Shown here piece after piece: positions 7,801 through 49,578 of a stretch of 64,000 nucleotides of DNA. The DNA is taken from positions 10,060 to 74,059 of the forward strand of contig CAAGJD010000129.1 of the NCBI GenBank assembly GCA_900770055.1. The letters run 5' to 3'. The stretch's first letter is position 1, and each line of letters starts with the position of its first letter. The stretch is from Acholeplasmatales bacterium (lineage in GTDB: Bacteria > Bacillota_I > Bacilli_A > Acholeplasmatales > Anaeroplasmataceae). The notes below the pieces were generated by a model. It searched no databases. It was not told where the DNA came from and saw only the letters and a program-made list of their open reading frames with translations. Position numbers and translations under genes: made by a program.

Positions 7801-10800
7801 AGAAAGTGGAAGTGAATACTTAGAACATAACTATGGTAGATTTGAGTTCTTTAGGGATAAAGAAACTAAAGAGTGGAACAACACTTTACTGGGAATGTTA
7901 TTTCATCCAAACCCACAAACAGGCAAATATAATGTAAGAGATAACTTTGAATATATTAATATGCTTGCTTTTGGTGGTAATAAGGATGCTAACTCTATTG
8001 GACAGGCAAATAAACATACAATGCTTCAAGGATTTATTAGTATGTATTATTCTGCTAATAATGATAGTGATGATAATACTTATGGATGGTATACTGGCCC
8101 ACTAATATCAGATGTAGATGCTTGTGTAATGTATAAATTGCCTAGATTTACTGGAGCAGGATACCAACAACAGCTTATTACTCTAATTACTAAAGTTCTA
8201 GAACAGGAGATAGACAGAGTTAATGCTGTAGATAGTGGAGATAACAATCTACAAATAGAGTTCTATAATGACAGTAAAAGCAATGCAAGAAAGTTTCAAT
8301 TCTTTCCAGAATTAAATGCAAGAAGGGAAGAGATACTTAATACTCTTGGAGCTATGGCTAGTGATAGTGCTAAAGAATATGCAGAACAAAAGCAGGCTTA
8401 TTTAGAAAGTATAATAGCTGAATTAATGCAAGAAAAAGTATCTAGATTTCTAAATGAGTTTAGTGAAGAGGAAAAAGGTGTACTTTGGGCATCTATTACT
8501 AAGATTGCAAAGAAAAAACAAAGAGATGAAGAAAAATTAGCAGAAATTGAGGGTAGAGAAATTAAAACCTTAGAAGAGATATTTAAAGAAGAGTCTATTC
8601 CTAATAGTGAGAAGATAGAGATAGTAAATGAAAAGCTTGAAGAATTCTATTACAATAATTTCTTTATGCATTCTCAATTAATTCAAGTGTTAGGTGGAGA
8701 CCTTGCTTATTATAAAAATTTTAGAGACTTTATAAAGAGATTTAAGCAGGCTTATGCTTGTGGAGAAAGACTTTATGCTAGAGATGAGAAGGGAGAGCCT
8801 ATAGTAGAACATTGTATGTACTCTGAGGATTTATATATGGTATCAAATAGTTGGAGCAGCATTAATAAGTTGCTTTCTGCTGATAAAACCATGACTTCTT
8901 TAGAAAAATCAATACTTAGAGGAGCTATAAATGCATTTAAAAATATTAATTCTACTGATGGCCAGTCATTTAGAACTATGAAATCTTTCAAAAAGATATT
9001 TGAAGCAAGGGGAATGTGGACAGATGCTATGGAAGATGCATATAATCATATTAGAGAAGGTAAGTCTACTCCTGATGATTTTTTGACTCTATGGCACCCA
9101 ATTAAACCTTTTGTATTTTCTTATGAAGCTAAAATGATTAATGGAAGACTGGAGAAAGTACCTGTACAACATAAGAACTCAGAGTATTTGCTTAATGCTA
9201 TATATTCGATGCTTAATGTTGCTATGAATAAATCTCCAGAATTACAAGCCATTCATCAATTTATGGAGGATAATGATATTGATGTACTGCACTTCCATTC
9301 AGTAGTAAAGGAGGGTTTTTTTGGTGCTGTTGATATTAACCATGATGAAAAAGCATTTAAGGAAGATTTCCCTAATAAGTCTTACAAAGAATACCTTGAA
9401 CAACAATTAGAATTACTTAAAACAGGTAAAATATCCCAAGAACAATATAATAAATCTATTTCTAAATATAGATTTAAGAATAAAGAGGCAGCATATAAAG
9501 CACTTCAAGAGCAAATGGGATCAAAAGATAATGAGGGTAATATAATTAAAGGGGAGGGCAATGCAATTAAGTTGGATGAAAATATGGACCATGTTATTCC
9601 ACTTGATGATTATTTAATTGTACAACCTTCTGATGACCATTTAGTTGATCATGAAGCTCTGTTTGGCTCTCAGTTAAGAAATATTATACCTGCTGATTTA
9701 CCAGACGATTTTACTCTTACTATTAATGGACAGACTTTAAATAGAGAAGAGGCTGTTCAGTACTATAATACTATTATTGCAGACCAGTTATTAGACTCTT
9801 TTTCTAAGGTAGATAGGGAATTTTCTAACATAGAAAAACTACAAAAAGCCCTATTAGCTAAAATGGAGAATAATCCTAAGTATGGTCCCGATGTAAAGCA
9901 GGCATTAGAGTTAAATGAAGATAAGACAGCATTTAAAATGCCATTTAATAGCCCTAACTTAACTAATAAGATTGAAGAGCTTATATTAAGCACTTTTAAA
10001 AATGCTATACAAAAACAAACTATTGATGGGGGAAATGTAGTTCTTGTATCTAATTATGGACTAAGTGATGAATTACATGTACAATGGAAAAATGCAAAAA
10101 CTGGAAAGCTAATTACATCTAAAAAAGATCTGGAAAATACACCAAAGGAAGATTTAGCGGTTGATCATATACCTTGCTATCTTCCCTATACTAAAAAAGA
10201 TATGTTAAAGGACTTTTTAGTAGAACAGCCTGATGGTACTTTTATACTTGATTTTAAAAAGATGGAAAGTATATTGGGTGATGAGTCTAAAAAGTTATTA
10301 GAAATAATAGGTTATAGAATTCCTACTGAAGATAAATACTCTGCTATGCCTTTAAGAATATATGGGTTTATGCCATCTATTTCAGGTACTACTATAATGC
10401 TTCCTTCGGACATTATTACAATGTCTGGTACTGACTTTGATATAGATAAACTCTTCATAATGATTAGAAGTATAAGAAGAGAAACTCATAGAGCAGAATT
10501 AAGGCAGGCTTTTTTACAGTGGTTAAATAAAAATAATCCATCAGGAGACGAAAGTTCAGCAGAATTGCTTAAAGGCCTATTGCTAAAGCAACTTAGTGAG
10601 GAAACAGATAATAAAGAAATAGAAGAGATTAAAAAAGCTATTGAAGAACTTGAGTCTTCTAAAAATATTAATCTCTCAGAAGTTAAAAAACTACTTAGAA
10701 GTAATAAAGGATTAACTGAACAAGAGATAGCTTCTATGGAAGAGCAGAGTGAGCTTTTTAGTAAATTTATGGAAGAAATAGGTTTTAATTATGCTTATAA

Positions 10801-41855: not shown

Positions 41856-44800
41856 TTAGCCCTGTAAAATTGCAGGAATTAGTGACATAGTTCTAGTTGG
41901 GTCAAGAACACAAATTCCAAGTGTAGCTAATCTATGAATAACTGCACTGTCTTCATCAAATGACATATTTGGATTGCCCTTTTGTCCTGTAAACGGATTT
42001 CTCAATCCCCATTGATAGCCTCTATACTCATTGTCGCCTTTAATCTTACATTTAAAGATATTAGGTTGGTCCATAGTACCAATGTACATAATATCATATC
42101 TGTAAGAGAATGCAACACCGCCATTTGGGTGAAGTATCTTATTTCTTACTGGGTCATCATAGACATTTTGTTATCGCATAGCTTTTTATCTATGCTTCTT
42201 ACAATTTATTATCTTGTAAGTTCAGCGTACATCATCATCCTTATTAGGATGTAGGACACTCTTGGGAATATTTTATTCTTATTACTAAGTTTCAATTCCT
42301 ACGCGTTACACTGACTCAAGTACTTTAACTCTTGAGTTTAGCACGGTGTTATCCACATTAAGAGAAATTATTTTATTATAAAGTAAGCTGCCTATTTCTA
42401 TAATACCTCTATTAAATTCAGCTTTAGGAAAATCTAAATTTAGATGTTTCCAAGTTTTCTTCTGAATTATATTTCTTATAGTTATATGCCCTACTTTATA
42501 GAGAGATGCAATTAATTTGATACTAAAGCCGTATTTAAGAAGAATAGGTATTAATCTAACATGGTCTAGAGTTAGAGGAGAAAGCTCTTCCCTATGCTTA
42601 TATGAATATATTGAGGCGTGCTTCATATTATCATGTTTACTTACCCACTCAAGATTCGTAACTTTATTATTGTACTTATTGCAATCTTTGTGATTTACTT
42701 CAGGTAATTTGTAAGGATTAGGAAGAAAAGCTTTAGCAACTAATATATGTGTCTTGATTGTTTTTCTTCCATGTATTCCTCTTAAAGTTACTTGCAAATA
42801 TCCAGAATTGTCATCATGTTGATGAATAAATTTCTTATAATAATCACTATATATCTTACCTGTATTATAAATCCTATACATAGGATATTCTCTTAATTTT
42901 CTATAATCTTCTATCATAGTTTACCTATTAAAACATTATATTAAAAGGACTTCACCGTTTTTGTCCTATTTTTCAAAATACATTACTGTATTAAGCCGCT
43001 CTATGAAAATTTAACGGGTCTACATCAATCTTAACTCTAACACCATTAGGAGCTTTATACTCAACAAATTGGAAACCAGCACTTAGTGAGTTTTGATGTA
43101 ATTTAGATTGAGTTTTTTGAACAGCACTAATAGAACTATTATCAAGAACAAATTGTGTCCAGCCTGATACTGTCTTTAGTACTTCCTTATGGAACTGAAT
43201 AGCACCTCTTTCACCAGTCTTAATTAAGAAATATCTTTCTCCAAAGTCCAGTTTAGAAGCAGAAAGCTCATATAGAGCATCTTCAAGGAGCTTCAAGCTA
43301 AATGTGTTGTAATACATAGTATTAGCAACTTCCATTTGCTCAAACATACCTGCCCCTGTCTTAATAGCATTACCAGACTTACCAAAGTTCATATATTCAC
43401 CATTAGCATTTCTGTTGCTTCTACCAAATGCTAGAGCATTGTTCTTATACTCAGAGAATTGACACTCAACTTCCCAGTCTACATTATGCATCCATGTTGT
43501 AGCAACTGATTTAGTATATCTACCTTCAGTCTCCTTAACAATAGGAATACCTACAGCCAGCTTTTTATTTAACATAGAACCTGGAACTTTGTGTTGAATT
43601 CTCACAGTACTCCACTCGTTTCTCATAGAAACAGGACTTGAGAATCTAACATCACCTACAGCTCTACTCAGTTCCTTCTCTACGAATGCAGCTTCTATAC
43701 TAAATCTTTCTCCAGCAAGGAGTCTTTCTGCAGGAACTCCTTGTGTATTTGCACCCATTAATTCACATTTATATACTGCATTACTTCCCTCCATTCTAGG
43801 ATTTCCTAAGATTCTAAATTGATAGATTTCATTAAGATTTCCTACGATTATTTCACCATCAGCAAACCAATCCTCAGGGAATACCAAATAGAAAGGAGCA
43901 GTGCCTACTCCAACCATACCACTGTCAGCTGTAACAACAGTACCATTTTCATCTCTTGCTTCTATAAGAGGAATGTTTCTTCTTGAAGAACCTATAACAT
44001 CCCAATAATACTCAGCATCATCCTCAAATTCCTTACATTGTGTTAATCTACTAATATACTTATTAGTAACTCCCTATATCTCTATAGGGTTCAGACTATA
44101 CCATCACCATTAAAGGTGGACATATTATAGTCGTTGAACCTCCTCATTAATTTATGAGTTTGGCTGCTGATTATCTAATTCTTTCTTTATTTCTAAAAGT
44201 AAATGATTAACCTCTTTAGAATATACAATACCTCTAACAATTTTAGAGATATAGCCATTTGTTACTCCTGTAATTCTTTCTACTTCTAAAATACTTTTTT
44301 TATATACATAATAATACTTTAAAATATCTTTTATTATAGAAATATTCAGTTTCTTTCTTTTTGGCTTTTTATACTCTGAAGGCTTACCATAATATTCTGT
44401 ATAAGTAGAAGACCATCTAACTCCTCTGATTATTTCTCCTATAAGTGCATCAGAAACATTATATTTCTTAGCTAAAATGCTTTTATTTTTACAAGTTTCC
44501 CAGTCCTTATATATTTGAATAACTTGTTGTTTGGTTAATTTGGCTCTTGGACTATCTTCTTCTACTTTATATAAATTTGTTTCTTTAGCATGTCTATGAT
44601 TATATTCTGCTGTACACCATTCTAAATTATATATGCTATTATTAGATTTATTACCATCTTTATGGTTTACTTCTGGTAAATTGTAAGGATTAGGAATGAA
44701 TTGAATAGCTACTATCCTATGAACTTGTAAATTAATAAATTTACCAAGTCTCCTATCCATTAATTTTACTTTGCAATAGCCATGACAGCTTTTATCAAAT

Positions 44801-45194
44801 TTTAATTCTTTATTAGTTAAAGTAGAGAAGATTTTACCACTTTTTGTAATATAGTAATCTTCATATCCTTTAATTTTATAATATTTATCCATAGTTATAT
44901 AAATTAAACTGAAATAAATACATTTACTTTTAGCAAGAAAGACTCTAAAGAACTTCCAGCAATTTAATGTCTTTTCATTAATAGATTTCTCTATTAAGCC
45001 GCTAAGGTATTAACGGGGAATTGATTTAGGAATGTGTCAAGTGTCTTTCCTCTGTAATAAGCCAATAATTGCACCATTAAATTTGTAGCCTTCTGTGGAG
45101 CTAACTGAAAGATAGAACCAAGATGGTTCTCTTTTGTTAGACCGCGCCAATGATTGAAGCCTACCATTTGAAACTTACCTAATTTTCCTGCCAT
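41856..45194 (-). CDS. Major capsid protein, spliced: join(45194..45013, 44035..43014, 42163..41856) = 1512 nt, 503 aa
   Basis: The exons join in frame, giving ...FLNQFP-V-KEFEDD... and ...KIDVDP-F-YDDPVRN...; located between the scaffold-like gene and the ring genes. Confidence 0.9.
42164..43013 (-). mobile_element. Group I intron 2 in the major capsid gene (850 nt)
   Basis: The exon ends in U (CCGU pairs with GCGG, P1 U-G); terminal G; P10 UCAUAGA pairs with exon UCUAUGA; P3 UAGGACA/UGUCCUA; P4 CGGUG/CACCG; P7 GCGUA/UACGC. Confidence 0.9.
42306..42917 (-). CDS. Intron-encoded HNH homing endonuclease (I-HmuI-like)
   Basis: HILVAKAFLPNP...EVNHKDCNKYNNKVTNLEWV. Confidence 0.9.
   Translation of the reverse strand: MIEDYRKLREYPMYRIYNTGKIYSDYYKKFIHQHDDNSGYLQVTLRGIHGRKTIKTHILVAKAFLPNPYKLPEVNHKDCNKYNNKVTNLEWVSKHDNMKHASIYSYKHREELSPLTLDHVRLIPILLKYGFSIKLIASLYKVGHITIRNIIQKKTWKHLNLDFPKAEFNRGIIEIGSLLYNKIISLNVDNTVLNSRVKVLESV
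44036..45012 (-). mobile_element. Group I intron 1 in the major capsid gene (977 nt)
   Basis: P1 CCGU/GCGG; P10 CCUUA pairs with exon UAAGG; terminal G; P AAUUGCUGGAA, Q AAUCAGCAGC, R GUUCAACGACUA, S GGUAUAGUC; P3 GACAU/AUGUC. Confidence 0.9.
44152..44892 (-). CDS. Intron-encoded HNH homing endonuclease with C-terminal HTH repeats
   Basis: VHRIVAIQFIPNP...EVNHKDGNKSNN..YNLEWCT; LAKKYNVS...I..I..G..W. Confidence 0.9.
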   Translation of the reverse strand: MDKYYKIKGYEDYYITKSGKIFSTLTNKELKFDKSCHGYCKVKLMDRRLGKFINLQVHRIVAIQFIPNPYNLPEVNHKDGNKSNNSIYNLEWCTAEYNHRHAKETNLYKVEEDSPRAKLTKQQVIQIYKDWETCKNKSILAKKYNVSDALIGEIIRGVRWSSTYTEYYGKPSEYKKPKRKKLNISIIKDILKYYYVYKKSILEVERITGVTNGYISKIVRGIVYSKEVNHLLLEIKKELDNQQPNS

Positions 45195-46523: not shown

Positions 46524-46556
46524 CAAAAATAAAGGGTAAGAATTAATCTTACCCTT
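46524..46556 (-). terminator. Intrinsic terminator ending the four-gene cassette
   Basis: AAGGGTAAGA/TCTTACCCTT stem with a T-tail on the - strand. Confidence 0.85.
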
Positions 46557-46561
46557 AACTA

Positions 46562-47041
46562 TTAGTGTTCATTCATGTACTTAAACCATTTATATTTATC
46601 AACCTGATCATCATCTTTAAACCAATATACTATTGCAGACTCTACAATCTTCTGTTCTATATTATCACCAAACCAGGCTTTAAATAATGAAACATAATTA
46701 TGATATTGAGAATTTATTGCAATATAAACATCACAAGTAGTTACTGATATTGGCAATATACCTCTATATCTTTCACACACTTCTTTTGCTTTATATATAT
46801 CAAATTTCTCTCCTACATACTTTCGTCCATTTTCAAGATGGTACATCTTTGATACTAATTCTTTTGCTTCAGTCTCACTTACATGACCATTATTAGTATG
46901 ACTTATAGAATCTGTAGATTTTGATAAGTATACAGGATCTTCCATTATACTGGCAGATGTCAATTCATGAAACTCATGTATATCCATATCAGAGATTATA
47001 CCTTTCTTTCTAAGGAATTGTAATAATAATACATCTTCCAT
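46562..47041 (-). CDS. Hypothetical protein, cassette gene 4 (D.Y.AIN..YH.Y...A..YWF.D.D)
   Basis: ORF in the cassette. Confidence 0.75.
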   Translation of the reverse strand: MEDVLLLQFLRKKGIISDMDIHEFHELTSASIMEDPVYLSKSTDSISHTNNGHVSETEAKELVSKMYHLENGRKYVGEKFDIYKAKEVCERYRGILPISVTTCDVYIAINSQYHNYVSLFKAWFGDNIEQKIVESAIVYWFKDDDQVDKYKWFKYMNEH

Positions 47042-47045
47042 ATTT

Positions 47046-47426
47046 TTAGTTTTTAGTGATTAGTGTTTCTTTAAAAGCTTCTAAATCTGTCATATCTAAC
47101 ACCAGTTTTTTATTTGTAAATGGTAAATTAAGTTTAATCTGCCCTCCACCAATTTCTATATCACCTATAAAAGAAGTCTTGAAAGTAAATGGATTTGTAG
47201 TCATAACATTTTCTATCATTTCAGCTAATATATTTTCAATATCTATTTTACCCTCATTATTGGCTATTAAATCCAAAATCTTTGTAATTTTATTAAAGTT
47301 TTTATCCAATGCTCTAGTTATAAGAGGTTTCATAAAACCTATCATAGGAGTATTTTTAGACATTGTATCAAGCTGTGAAGTTATATAGGCTCTCAGATTA
47401 TCTGTCAGTTGCATTATAGTCACCAT
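47046..47426 (-). CDS. Hypothetical protein, cassette gene 3
   Basis: ORF in the cassette. Confidence 0.75.
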   Translation of the reverse strand: MVTIMQLTDNLRAYITSQLDTMSKNTPMIGFMKPLITRALDKNFNKITKILDLIANNEGKIDIENILAEMIENVMTTNPFTFKTSFIGDIEIGGGQIKLNLPFTNKKLVLDMTDLEAFKETLITKN

Positions 47427-47427
47427 A

Positions 47428-47910
47428 TTATATATTCTCCTTTATAAATTCTTCATAAGAAGTACTAGGATGCTCTTTACTATATTCCTTAAACTTCTTA
47501 AATAATTCCATTTCCCTATTAGTATCTTCAATTATTTTAGCCTTTAATTTCTTAACTACTTTTAACTGCTTAGATAATAATTCTTTACCCCTTTCAGTAC
47601 TTTCAATTTTACCTTTAACAAGATTAAGAAGTTCTAATTGTACTATGGACTGTAATTCATTATATATATCTACATAATCAGCATCTTGTAAAAGTCTATT
47701 CTTTTGTTCAGTACTCATAGGAGTAATCTCCGCATCTATTTTATCCCATATTAATTGCTTTTGTTGGGTAGATTGTGATTGCTGCTGAGATTCTTTTATC
47801 TGCTTTAGCTTTTGCCTATATGCTTCCATTTTTTGAATTTGTACATCTATGTCATCTAAATTATTAAACATAGATTCTCCACCTAATATGACTTGATTTA
47901 CTGGATACAT
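47428..47910 (-). CDS. Q-rich coiled-coil hypothetical protein, cassette gene 2
   Basis: ORF in the cassette. Confidence 0.75.
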   Translation of the reverse strand: MYPVNQVILGGESMFNNLDDIDVQIQKMEAYRQKLKQIKESQQQSQSTQQKQLIWDKIDAEITPMSTEQKNRLLQDADYVDIYNELQSIVQLELLNLVKGKIESTERGKELLSKQLKVVKKLKAKIIEDTNREMELFKKFKEYSKEHPSTSYEEFIKENI

Positions 47911-47940
47911 AGATTTTACTTTTTGTATGTTAGATATTAA

Positions 47941-47966
47941 GTATGTCCTAAATTAATAGGACATAC
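47941..47966. promoter_or_regulatory. Intergenic hairpin after cassette gene 1 (mRNA-stabilising or leaky terminator)
   Basis: Perfect 10-bp stem GTATGTCCTA/TAGGACATAC without a strong U-tail on the - strand. Confidence 0.65.
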
Positions 47967-47974
47967 CTTAAAAA

Positions 47975-48763
47975 TTAGATAATTCTACCACAAGGAGAGC
48001 AACACCCACATAAAGGATTATATGTAGACTCTGTGTGAGTAGTTGTGCCTACAGTAGGTTCTGCTATAGTCTGAGGAACAAATGTACTATTTACATAGTT
48101 TACAATTTTGTTATCAGCACAGCATCTTCTCTCTGCTTCAAGGTTAATTCCAGCAGTTGCAGAAGCAGCAACACTATTTATTCTCATATCAAGTACCTTA
48201 GCTCTCCATGGTTCAACAGCATCAGCTACAGCCTGCTTAGTCTCTAAAGCACCTATTCTTGCAGAAAGTGTATCAAAGTTATCTCTTTGGTTCTTGTAAA
48301 GAGCAAAAGAATCATCAGTAATTCTTTTGTTTACAATATCAAAGCTATCTCTTGTAGATTTATAAAGACCAAAATCTGCATTTACTTGGCTCTTCCAGAC
48401 ACTAAATAATTCACCATTTAAAGTCTGTCTATCATTGAATCTGTTATACTGGTTATTAAGAGCAAGATTATACATATCAGCTTGTTGCTTCAAGTTATCT
48501 TCACACTCTTTCTCCCACACACTAAATGCAGTTGGGGCAGCACCATTAGTACCATTAACATCAGCATTTATATTTACATTCTGAGGCATACCATTATATC
48601 CACAGCTGTTACCAAAGAGTCCAAAACCTCCTCTATTGAGTGCTAATAGACCAAGTGCAGTACCAGCAATTCCTAATCCAAGCCCTGTACCAGCTACACC
48701 CTTTGAAGCATATTCCTTAGTAGGCTCTTTTTCAACTTCTTTTACCTTTTCAATAATTTCCAT
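47975..48763 (-). CDS. Glycine-zipper, coiled-coil, Cys-rich protein, cassette gene 1
   Basis: ASKGVAGTGLGLGIAGTALGLL; RRCC; C-terminal LCGCCSPCG. Confidence 0.8.
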   Translation of the reverse strand: MEIIEKVKEVEKEPTKEYASKGVAGTGLGLGIAGTALGLLALNRGGFGLFGNSCGYNGMPQNVNINADVNGTNGAAPTAFSVWEKECEDNLKQQADMYNLALNNQYNRFNDRQTLNGELFSVWKSQVNADFGLYKSTRDSFDIVNKRITDDSFALYKNQRDNFDTLSARIGALETKQAVADAVEPWRAKVLDMRINSVAASATAGINLEAERRCCADNKIVNYVNSTFVPQTIAEPTVGTTTHTESTYNPLCGCCSPCGRII

Positions 48764-48822
48764 AACAAGTAATTTTTGAAAAATTAAATTTAATTATTTA
48801 TCTCTTTTGTAAGCTTACAACG

Positions 48823-48857
48823 CAAATATATGCCAAATTATTTATGATACCTATCAT
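48823..48857 (-). promoter_or_regulatory. Promoter with an intact -7 box (TATATTTG), a non-consensus -33 (TAG) and a palindrome ATGATA-CC-TATCAT (48844-48857)
   Basis: Seen directly; the palindrome overlaps the position occupied by TTG in the five other promoters. Confidence 0.65.
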
Positions 48858-48867
48858 TACTCATATA

Positions 48868-48906
48868 ACAAAAAACCCTGACTATCTATATGATAATCAG
48901 GGTTTT
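48868..48906 (-). terminator. Intrinsic terminator after the HTH gene
   Basis: AAAACCCTGA...TCAGGGTTTT stem with a T-tail on the - strand. Confidence 0.8.
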
Positions 48907-48920
48907 ATATACTATATAAT

Positions 48921-49223
48921 TTATAACTCATTACTCATTTTCTTTATATATTCATCTAAGTCTTTCTTATACCATCGAAGTTCCTTAAATCCTATTTCAT
49001 GTTTTCCTTTAGGTAATTTACCTTCAGCTACATATCTATCAAAAGTAGCTCTACTTATATTAAGATACTCACAGGCTGCATATTTACTTATGCCTTTATC
49101 TTTTCTTGTATATTCAGATAATGCCTTAACTATTTCAATAGCATCATTTTCTGATATATTTGAATTACCTGCATCAATATCATCTATTATCTTTATTAGT
49201 AGATTTCTTATAACTTCTAACAT
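48921..49223 (-). CDS. MerR/excisionase-like (HTH_17-type) DNA-binding protein
   Basis: ISKYAACEYLNISRATFDRYVAEGKLPKG...LRWYKKDL. Confidence 0.8.
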   Translation of the reverse strand: MLEVIRNLLIKIIDDIDAGNSNISENDAIEIVKALSEYTRKDKGISKYAACEYLNISRATFDRYVAEGKLPKGKHEIGFKELRWYKKDLDEYIKKMSNEL

Positions 49224-49578
49224 ACAAATAAACTGTTATAAATATAGCTATTCCTGTAAATATGCTATATATACCAAACATTGAATAATTATCTACTGGA
49301 ATACCTACATATACATCATATACATTTATTAGGTTTATACCTAAAGCATAGTGTATAGGCATTCTATGATATCCACAAAACTTAAATACATAAGATGAAA
49401 CATATAAAAATAGAAAAAACATTAGGTAAACTATGTAATTAACTAGTGTAGAACATATATCTATATAATCTAATATTGTAGATAAAATATAAAGTGCTGC
49501 TATAACAAATGGCAGCACTTTAATAATTACTATCTCTAATTTGTATAAGTTACTTTTTAAGTTTCCCTCCGCAGCCAT
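49180..49578 (-). CDS. Small integral membrane protein (about 4 TM segments)
   Basis: Four hydrophobic stretches; FKFCGYHRMP loop; overlaps the HTH gene. Confidence 0.7.
   Translation of the reverse strand: MAAEGNLKSNLYKLEIVIIKVLPFVIAALYILSTILDYIDICSTLVNYIVYLMFFLFLYVSSYVFKFCGYHRMPIHYALGINLINVYDVYVGIPVDNYSMFGIYSIFTGIAIFITVYLYVRSYKKSTNKDNR

Follow-up and report, generated by a model that had tools for sequence, protein, structure and literature searches.

An optional four-gene cassette of crAss-like phages and the promoter layout that accompanies its excisionase-like HTH protein

The closest described counterpart of the locus considered here is found in p-crAssphage (Carjivirus communis), where four genes, KP06_gp61 to gp58, are labelled putative tail or hypothetical proteins and no printed function was found for them. 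The label 'putative tail protein' belongs to KP06_gp61; no experimental basis for it was found in the literature searched. Counterparts of the four genes (g1 to g4) occur in the same order in a 64,000-nucleotide stretch of contig CAAGJD010000129.1, catalogued as Acholeplasmatales bacterium; this whole stretch is referred to as the window, and positions are given on it. The window proteins share 32, 51, 40, and 55% identity with gp61 to gp58, respectively. However, p-crAssphage has no match to the helix-turn-helix (HTH) protein encoded beside the window genes, has neither the O2 element nor the -7 promoter box described below, and carries the cassette in another genomic slot. The genes are already catalogued, while the system as such is not described in the searchable literature: no description of the cassette was found in the literature searched, which included the accessible parts of PMC7886860, PMC10983915, PMC11054128, 10.1101/295642, 10.1101/582015, and PMC10172136, with subscription papers mostly outside the search. 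The new element here is the regulation, namely a fixed promoter layout tied to the HTH gene. This layout heads either the g1-g4 set (the A-type cassette) or a different set of genes found in the same slot (the B-type cassette).

The capsid fragment and the gene preceding the major capsid gene (the pre-capsid gene) are 88 and 70% identical to those of cr85_1, a member of the Steigviridae, and the window therefore derives from a crAss-like phage of this family. The cassette is flanked by a DUF5675 endolysin-type gene on one side and by the pre-capsid gene, of 391 aa, on the other. Its genes appear to be phage-borne and not chromosomal, since g1 was not found in 400 genomes from the phylum of the bin holding the contig, and DUF7841, the family of g4, exceeded its cut-off in only one of 401 genomes from a Bacteroidales-centred sample. 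The 94-kb phage contig was binned with a 1.9-Mb bacterial assembly, which is likely to be a misbinning; the same is likely for several Bacillota-labelled contigs among the g1 carriers.

The cassette promoter and its candidate regulator

All six reading frames lie on the minus strand, where the original prediction had placed them, and the genes for a membrane protein and the HTH protein overlap by 44 nt. An intrinsic terminator (48866-48906, minus strand; fold z -6.5) separates the HTH gene from the cassette promoter, and a second one (46524-46556, minus strand; z -4.7) ends the cassette. The proposed insulation of four genes between terminators is thus borne out, with six terminator-like sites found against 1.4 in shuffled sequence; the two sites were placed at 48906-48872 and 46556-46532.

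Upstream of g1 the promoter elements, all on the minus strand, keep a fixed layout: an O1 palindrome at -107, the terminator, an O2 element at -33, a TAnnTTTG box, and a further palindrome 3-7 nt later. The box (48823-48830), which we take to be the Bacteroidota -7 consensus, lies no more than 170 nt from the start in 47 of 58 leaders, compared with 0.13 expected per 170 nt. The O2 element, TTAGYAWYGTTAKG (48850-48863), holds a fixed position from -33 to -20 relative to the box, is ungapped in 29 anchored promoters, and is a predicted HTH site abutting a weak -33 element; it is the best matrix match in the window, although the matrix itself includes the window. Its left half is common to O1 (48920-48937), a degenerate copy of the palindrome TTAGYAWY-N2-RWTRCTAA located 107 nt before the box and also a putative HTH site. 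With 13 of 16 matches, the window copy of O1 is not significant alone, there being 51 such sites in the contig; O1 lies near -107 in 21 of 34 training loci. The distance between O1 and O2 is 74 bp, or seven helical turns. The last element is a perfect 14-bp palindrome at the predicted transcription start (48807-48820), which may be a second operator or a 5' hairpin; its core occurs only once in the 94-kb contig. A search of 108 loci gave the box-plus-palindrome pattern 57 times, never more than once in a locus. Other clades have other perfect palindromes at +1, symmetric through the centre, and the RNA fold is weak. A sigma-70 promoter scan showed no excess (29 versus 33) and is uninformative. 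A second TAnnTTTG box (46449-46442, minus strand), with neither O2 nor a palindrome, heads the capsid operon.

Which gene accompanies these sites? A gene-blind scan of IMG/VR with O2 plus the box returned at least 80 loci, a set that includes near-identical genomes and overlaps the training set. Among the 80 matches listed, an HTH gene lies upstream in 71, the membrane gene is present in 24, an A cassette in 30, a B cassette in 39, and none of these in 4; 69 of the 80 head an A or B cassette. O1 had played no part in the selection, and it was found with at least 14 of 16 matches at offsets of -105 to -109 in 52 of the 80. In these loci the +1 palindrome shows no association with the membrane gene. 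The HTH protein is likely to be the direct regulator of the cassette, because it is encoded at 71 of the motif loci and the membrane protein at 24; the membrane gene thus does not always accompany the regulator and its sites. The original prediction that the cassette has its own promoter agrees with this conserved layout, whose upstream sites track the HTH gene.

A similar association is seen when the loci are chosen by g1. In a tally of non-redundant g1 loci showing 1.5 kb upstream, O2 was present in 30 of 48 loci with the HTH, in 6 of 28 without a regulator, and in none of 7 with a DnaA_C-like gene. Of the six O2 loci without an adjacent regulator, two encode the HTH at another place on their contig and three are fragments, two of which were searched, whereas cr85_1 is a true exception. 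The DnaA_C-like protein stands in place of the HTH at seven prophage-type loci (L078, L088, L089, L091, L094, L098, and L099). Several loci of this type have direct repeats spaced by 11 bp before the -7 box, as judged by eye, and a stronger +1 hairpin. A regulator of this type is found before B cassettes as well (L199, L214, and C3_41T2LP).

The HTH protein (48921-49223, minus strand; 100 aa) had been described as MerR/Xis-like. The excisionase half of that description stands: the protein belongs to HTH_17 (PF12728, 34.1 bits against a cut-off of 27, E 3e-8) and scores just below the cut-off of TIGR01764 (28.0 versus 28.8 bits). It matches no MerR family and lacks a MerR effector domain. The HTH itself is C-terminal, with the protein ending about 5 aa beyond it, and is preceded by a conserved 40-aa extension. 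An alignment of the protein gave nothing convincing against PDB sequences.

The membrane protein (49180-49578, minus strand; 132 aa) has three clear hydrophobic segments, and the fourth of the roughly four segments first proposed is only possible. Cys68 and Tyr77 are invariant in the alignment, and no family was found in Pfam, PHROG, NCBIfam, or PADLOC. The gene lies beside the HTH in 71 of 79 HTH-anchored loci, which represent the closest HTHs. The protein is best described as an optional partner of the HTH and is at most a candidate membrane sensor. A -7 box precedes only 8 of 126 membrane genes, and the membrane/HTH pair would therefore be transcribed with the lysis genes. Between the endolysin and membrane genes, two tiny Lys/Arg-rich, Cys-containing open reading frames (ORFs) of 17 and 29 aa can be read by eye (49713-49660 and 49639-49550, minus strand). 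A similar peptide motif is found upstream of 19 of the 126 membrane genes, and in IAS virus and cr116_1 a 34-aa ORF is annotated at this spot.

Distribution, anatomy and loss of the cassette

The four-gene order is also seen in further families of the Crassvirales and in Bacteroidales prophages that are unrelated to them. Among 80 g1 loci found by tblastn, g2 is present in 78, g3 in 76, g4 in 40, the HTH gene in 52, and the membrane gene in 36. Carriers include cr118_1 (Suoliviridae), cr11_1 (Intestiviridae), which lacks g4, crAss-like contigs of 140-178 kb, and BF1-TP2, an isolate on B. fragilis with an A-type cassette; 24 loci are on genome contigs, with Segatella, Prevotella, and Bacteroides prophage regions among the matches listed. 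A g1 profile search retrieved 723 clusters at 50% identity. Of the co-occurrence expected for all six genes, the ordered g1-g3 core holds up, while six-gene obligacy does not: the membrane gene is often missing from the motif loci, p-crAssphage and cr11_1 have no HTH match, and seven prophage-type loci use the DnaA_C-like protein instead.

The cassette is optional. The virion structure of crAss001 has been solved (accessible parts of PMC10172136), and in its genome the endolysin gene abuts the pre-capsid gene, leaving the slot empty; as had been proposed, the unit is thus not a core virion or lysis part. No match to g1, g2, or g4 was found in crAss001, DAC15/17, or 25 Bcn records. The 55 pre-capsid-gene matches include 34 cultured-phage records, in none of which g1, g2, g4, the HTH, the membrane protein, or the B-type protein B1 was matched (g3 was not searched there), whereas 10 of the 12 uncultured genomes carry the cassette at least in part. 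This contrast is a lead and not a statistic, as the cultured phages come from few genera. The cultured phage crAss002 has only an unannotated g4 remnant (L081:5001-5177).

The g1 protein (47975-48763, minus strand; 262 aa) consists of a Gly-zipper hydrophobic segment (residues 23-41), a coiled coil (79-216), and a Cys-rich tail. AlphaFold models residues 79-216 as a single helix with low-confidence ends (pTM 0.26). The distance between Cys87 and Leu155 is 46, 57, 68, or 79 residues in 34 of 37 sequences and 39 in the other three, and hydrophobic periodicity peaks at 3.61, not 3.5; the repeat unit is therefore 11 residues, and g1 is modelled as an 11-residue-repeat coiled-coil rod. All 38 aligned proteins have a tail cysteine, with a mean of 2.8. 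A stable hairpin without a U-run follows g1 (47939-47969, minus strand; z -4.8), as first noted; in relatives, 56 of 69 spacers keep a structure of -10 kcal/mol or lower, and 44 of 69 reach z -3 or lower. This hairpin would favour an excess of g1. Searches of PDB sequences with alignments of g1, g2, g3, and the HTH produced no convincing match; the highest-ranking one was to a capsid protein (E 0.0085), without a passing stretch. For g1, comparison with tail fibres and spikes found no PHROG, Pfam, or PDB sequence match, and the fold search, for which the query was the single-helix, low-pTM model and which is uninformative for that reason, found no match.

The remaining genes encode small proteins, also on the minus strand. 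The g2 product (47428-47910; 160 aa) is an acidic, helical homolog of KP06_gp60, and g2 is the most conserved cassette gene; g3 (47046-47426; 126 aa) encodes a homolog of KP06_gp59. Both proteins are Cys-free or essentially so, and alignments against PDB sequences identified no solved homolog. The g4 protein (46562-47041; 159 aa), a homolog of KP06_gp58, belongs to DUF7841 (PF25223; 97.8 bits against a cut-off of 25.2, E 6e-28), a family that is also found in the B-type cassette. Its confident model (pLDDT 83) retrieved only DUF7841 relatives in BFVD and none in PDB, with a best Z of 4.8 in a wide search; a recurring likeness to sigma region 2 (Z about 4) was set aside as too weak to use. No paper naming DUF7841 was found in the literature searched. 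The description of four unknown genes thus needs qualification, since g4 has a family and g1 a labelled homolog, while g1-g3 have no match in the family libraries (Pfam, PHROG, NCBIfam, and PADLOC). The ESM Atlas gave only automatic names, and no named cluster for g3.

Intact copies of the cassette are under purifying selection. Summed over 22 intact loci, dN/dS is 0.17 for g1, 0.08 for g2, 0.13 for g3, and 0.18 for g4, with 0.12 for the HTH gene, 0.31 for the membrane gene, and 0.16 for the pre-capsid gene; these values are rough, as the median dS is near 1. At the same time, the cassette is frequently lost. The slot is fully visible in 68 of the 79 HTH-anchored loci (partly visible in the other 11), and contains 38 intact A cassettes, 5 intact B cassettes, 22 remnants, and 3 empty slots. 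The remnants represent 21 distinct deletions, 20 of which leave no intact g1. The neighbouring genes in remnant or empty loci are intact: the holin in 24 of 24, the endolysin in 22 of 24, and the pre-capsid gene in 23 of 23. Deletion fusions of g1 with g4 and of g1 with g3 in an independent protein set fit this pattern. Long conservation combined with frequent recent loss would be expected of a trait that is intermittently useful and costly.

The g1 gene may also serve as a homing target. Inserts of about 1 kb (0.9-1.1 kb) with GIY-YIG-like ORFs interrupt the Gly-zipper codons at more than one site, in seven loci (L019:3565-4652, L185:5394-6429, L133, L181, L013, L063, and L086). From their anatomy, on which the assignment rests, they are likely to be group I introns; Rfam recognised no family in eight loci, these inserts included, nor in the window itself. 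The major capsid gene (41856-45194) is likewise in at least three pieces, split by two HNH-like ORFs (44152-44892 and 42306-42917) that probably belong to group I introns, for which Rfam gave no match at gathering score. In-frame stops were also seen in otherwise intact homologs (L001:5001-5786 and other loci), possibly reflecting TAG recoding, which is known for this phage group; ORF-based counts therefore undercount the affected loci.

Readings of the cassette's function

What might such a cassette do? The best explanation, held tentatively and at somewhat less than even confidence, is an optional, separately promoted operon that the HTH protein activates late, and that mass-produces a membrane-anchored, Cys-tipped rod, which would aid the progeny on their way from host to host but be costly within one. 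As the HTH gene lacks a box of its own, its transcription would accompany that of the lysis genes, and it is proposed to act as a delay switch. An HTH dimer would then bind O1 and O2, across the seven helical turns and against the weak -33 element, and turn the promoter on; this step we consider probable from the pattern of the sites. The late operon would yield g1 in excess through the hairpin, and it is fairly likely that g1 is the bulk product and oligomerises, with g2, g3, and the DUF7841 protein as assembly or control partners. Much more doubtful is the final step, in which rods anchored in the infected-cell envelope would be cross-linked by disulfides into a lattice on meeting oxygen, and so bundle or shield the progeny outside the gut. 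An extended form of the idea seems unlikely as a whole: an end-of-infection switch would enclose the progeny in a protein capsule made from the dying cell and locked by disulfides, the phage equivalent of a spore coat or an occlusion body, with two interchangeable kits (A and B) on one regulator. Such a kit would be kept by transmission and repeatedly deleted by within-host cheaters, and would have been missed because it is present in p-crAssphage but not in the model crAssphages isolated from plaques.

Several observations weigh against the rod-and-switch explanation. In the complete genome of cr85_1 every promoter motif is retained with no HTH match, and 18 of the 48 HTH loci, mostly with divergent HTHs, lack O2. 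p-crAssphage and cr11_1 hold the cassette with neither HTH nor motifs, and the switch is therefore not required. O2 could also be a repressor site. Of 24 loci from which the cassette has been lost, 21 keep an intact membrane gene, and in IAS virus the membrane/HTH pair persists alone; the pair may therefore serve another job. On the side of g1, 31 of 102 distant relatives have fewer than two tail cysteines (71 have at least two), and the Gly-zipper segment is only marginally hydrophobic (1.64). Finally, the loci are related genomes, so that counts overstate independence, some deletions could be assembly errors, and the narrow range of cultured genera bears on the absence of the cassette from them.

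An alternative, which we regard as doubtful, is that the cassette acts on the host membrane from the inside, through a pore or coat built of g1 oligomers that delays lysis or excludes superinfecting phage and thereby supports a carrier state, with the membrane protein sensing the state of the envelope. The Gly-zipper segment would suit this role, as would the position of the cassette directly after holin and endolysin in the Steigviridae and several prophages, its absence from plaque-isolated Steigviridae, and the g1-biased deletion, which suggests cost or toxicity. However, in p-crAssphage and cr11_1 the cassette lies away from lysis genes, the B. fragilis isolate BF1-TP2 has the A type, and the plaque-isolated C3_41T2LP has the B type. 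Beyond generic HTH matches there is no PADLOC or lysis family match, and the Cys tail and the hairpin-driven excess would be left unexplained.

It is rather unlikely that g1 is a fibre or spike carried by some virions, encoded together with its chaperones, the switch tuning adsorption or mucus binding. The long coiled coil of variable repeat number and the location among structural genes (beside tail genes in p-crAssphage) are consistent with a fibre, as are the labels of KP06_gp61 and of B1, which records call a spike or fibre. In addition, the head fibres of crAss001 are not conserved across the order and others may substitute for them, according to the accessible parts of PMC10172136. By contrast, neither a receptor-binding knob nor a fibre homolog was recognised for the A type, selection is purifying and not diversifying, and the same protein is found in crAss-like phages and unrelated prophages; a fibre would not usually begin with a hydrophobic Gly zipper or have a multi-site promoter to itself, and the gp61 label lacks an experimental basis in the literature searched.

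That the membrane/HTH pair is independent of an ordinary, constitutive late operon, for example as a small terminase subunit, is improbable: the RefSeq label 'terminase small subunit', a weak phrog_4102 match (E 0.003), the persistence of the pair after cassette loss, and the motifs of cr85_1 without an HTH favour it. Against the terminase role, the HTH is absent from crAss001 and p-crAssphage, which both package DNA, and gene 86 has been proposed as TerS (Yutin 2021; accessible parts of PMC7886860). Against an independent pair, the gene-blind motif scan recovered the HTH in different phage groups, and a different regulator is accompanied by different upstream repeats.

The most abundant gut phage, p-crAssphage, has the cassette, as do members of four crAss-like groups and Bacteroidales prophages, whereas the cultured Steigviridae that underlie crAss biology lack it. 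If the cassette shields progeny between hosts or controls persistence, it would bear on how these phages spread and persist. With two mapped sites, a single HTH, and the cultured carriers BF1-TP2 and C3_41T2LP, both the regulation and the function are open to direct tests, and a promoter that depends on the HTH could become a tool for Bacteroides genetics. The findings also call into question the names 'tail protein', 'nuclear pore complex-like', and 'terminase small subunit' that databases give to these genes.

Comparison with known systems

PADLOC 2.0 recognised no full defence system at the locus, only a generic HTH match (mad1) and one weak coil match. The ExsY/CotY type of Cys-rich, self-assembling spore-surface proteins resembles g1 by analogy of function only, in its cysteine clusters, predicted self-assembly, and presumed locking by oxidation. 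Unlike these proteins, g1 has a long coiled coil and hosts that are non-sporulating Bacteroidota, and no sequence or fold match connects the two. The regulator resembles HTH_17/excisionase-type proteins (TIGR01764) in its C-terminal 50 aa, which exceed the PF12728 cut-off. It differs from them in its additional N-terminal helical extension and in the sites with which it is associated, an inverted repeat and a half-site; the sites bound by Xis and BldC are direct repeats.

Also among the closest known systems is the B-type cassette of cr116_1, epsilon crAss-like phages, and C3_41T2LP, where records say 'spike protein/glycoprotein'. No match was seen between g2 or g3 and B2-B4, and a HExxH peptidase-like gene is often added in the B type. 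Small zincin-like genes of this kind (VOG3488, B5, KP06_gp56) recur beside the cassette, often directly after the HTH (L083:5293-5640 and 7873-8268; L077:9679-10020); one has a weak Peptidase_M78 score (E 0.045), and none was found in the genome of the window phage. Comparison of g1 with B1 gave a weak match at best, with a probability of 16% in hhalign (E 0.0016) and no E below 4.6 when a profile of 140 sequences was used. B1 has the same anatomy of a Gly-rich head, a coiled coil, and a Cys tail, DUF7841 is held in common in other genomes, and mosaics of g1-g3 with B4-B5 occur. The B type shares the slot, the HTH, and the promoter motifs, both in cr116_1 and in the 39 motif loci listed; in cr116_1, the same membrane gene, HTH, and promoter are followed by five different genes.

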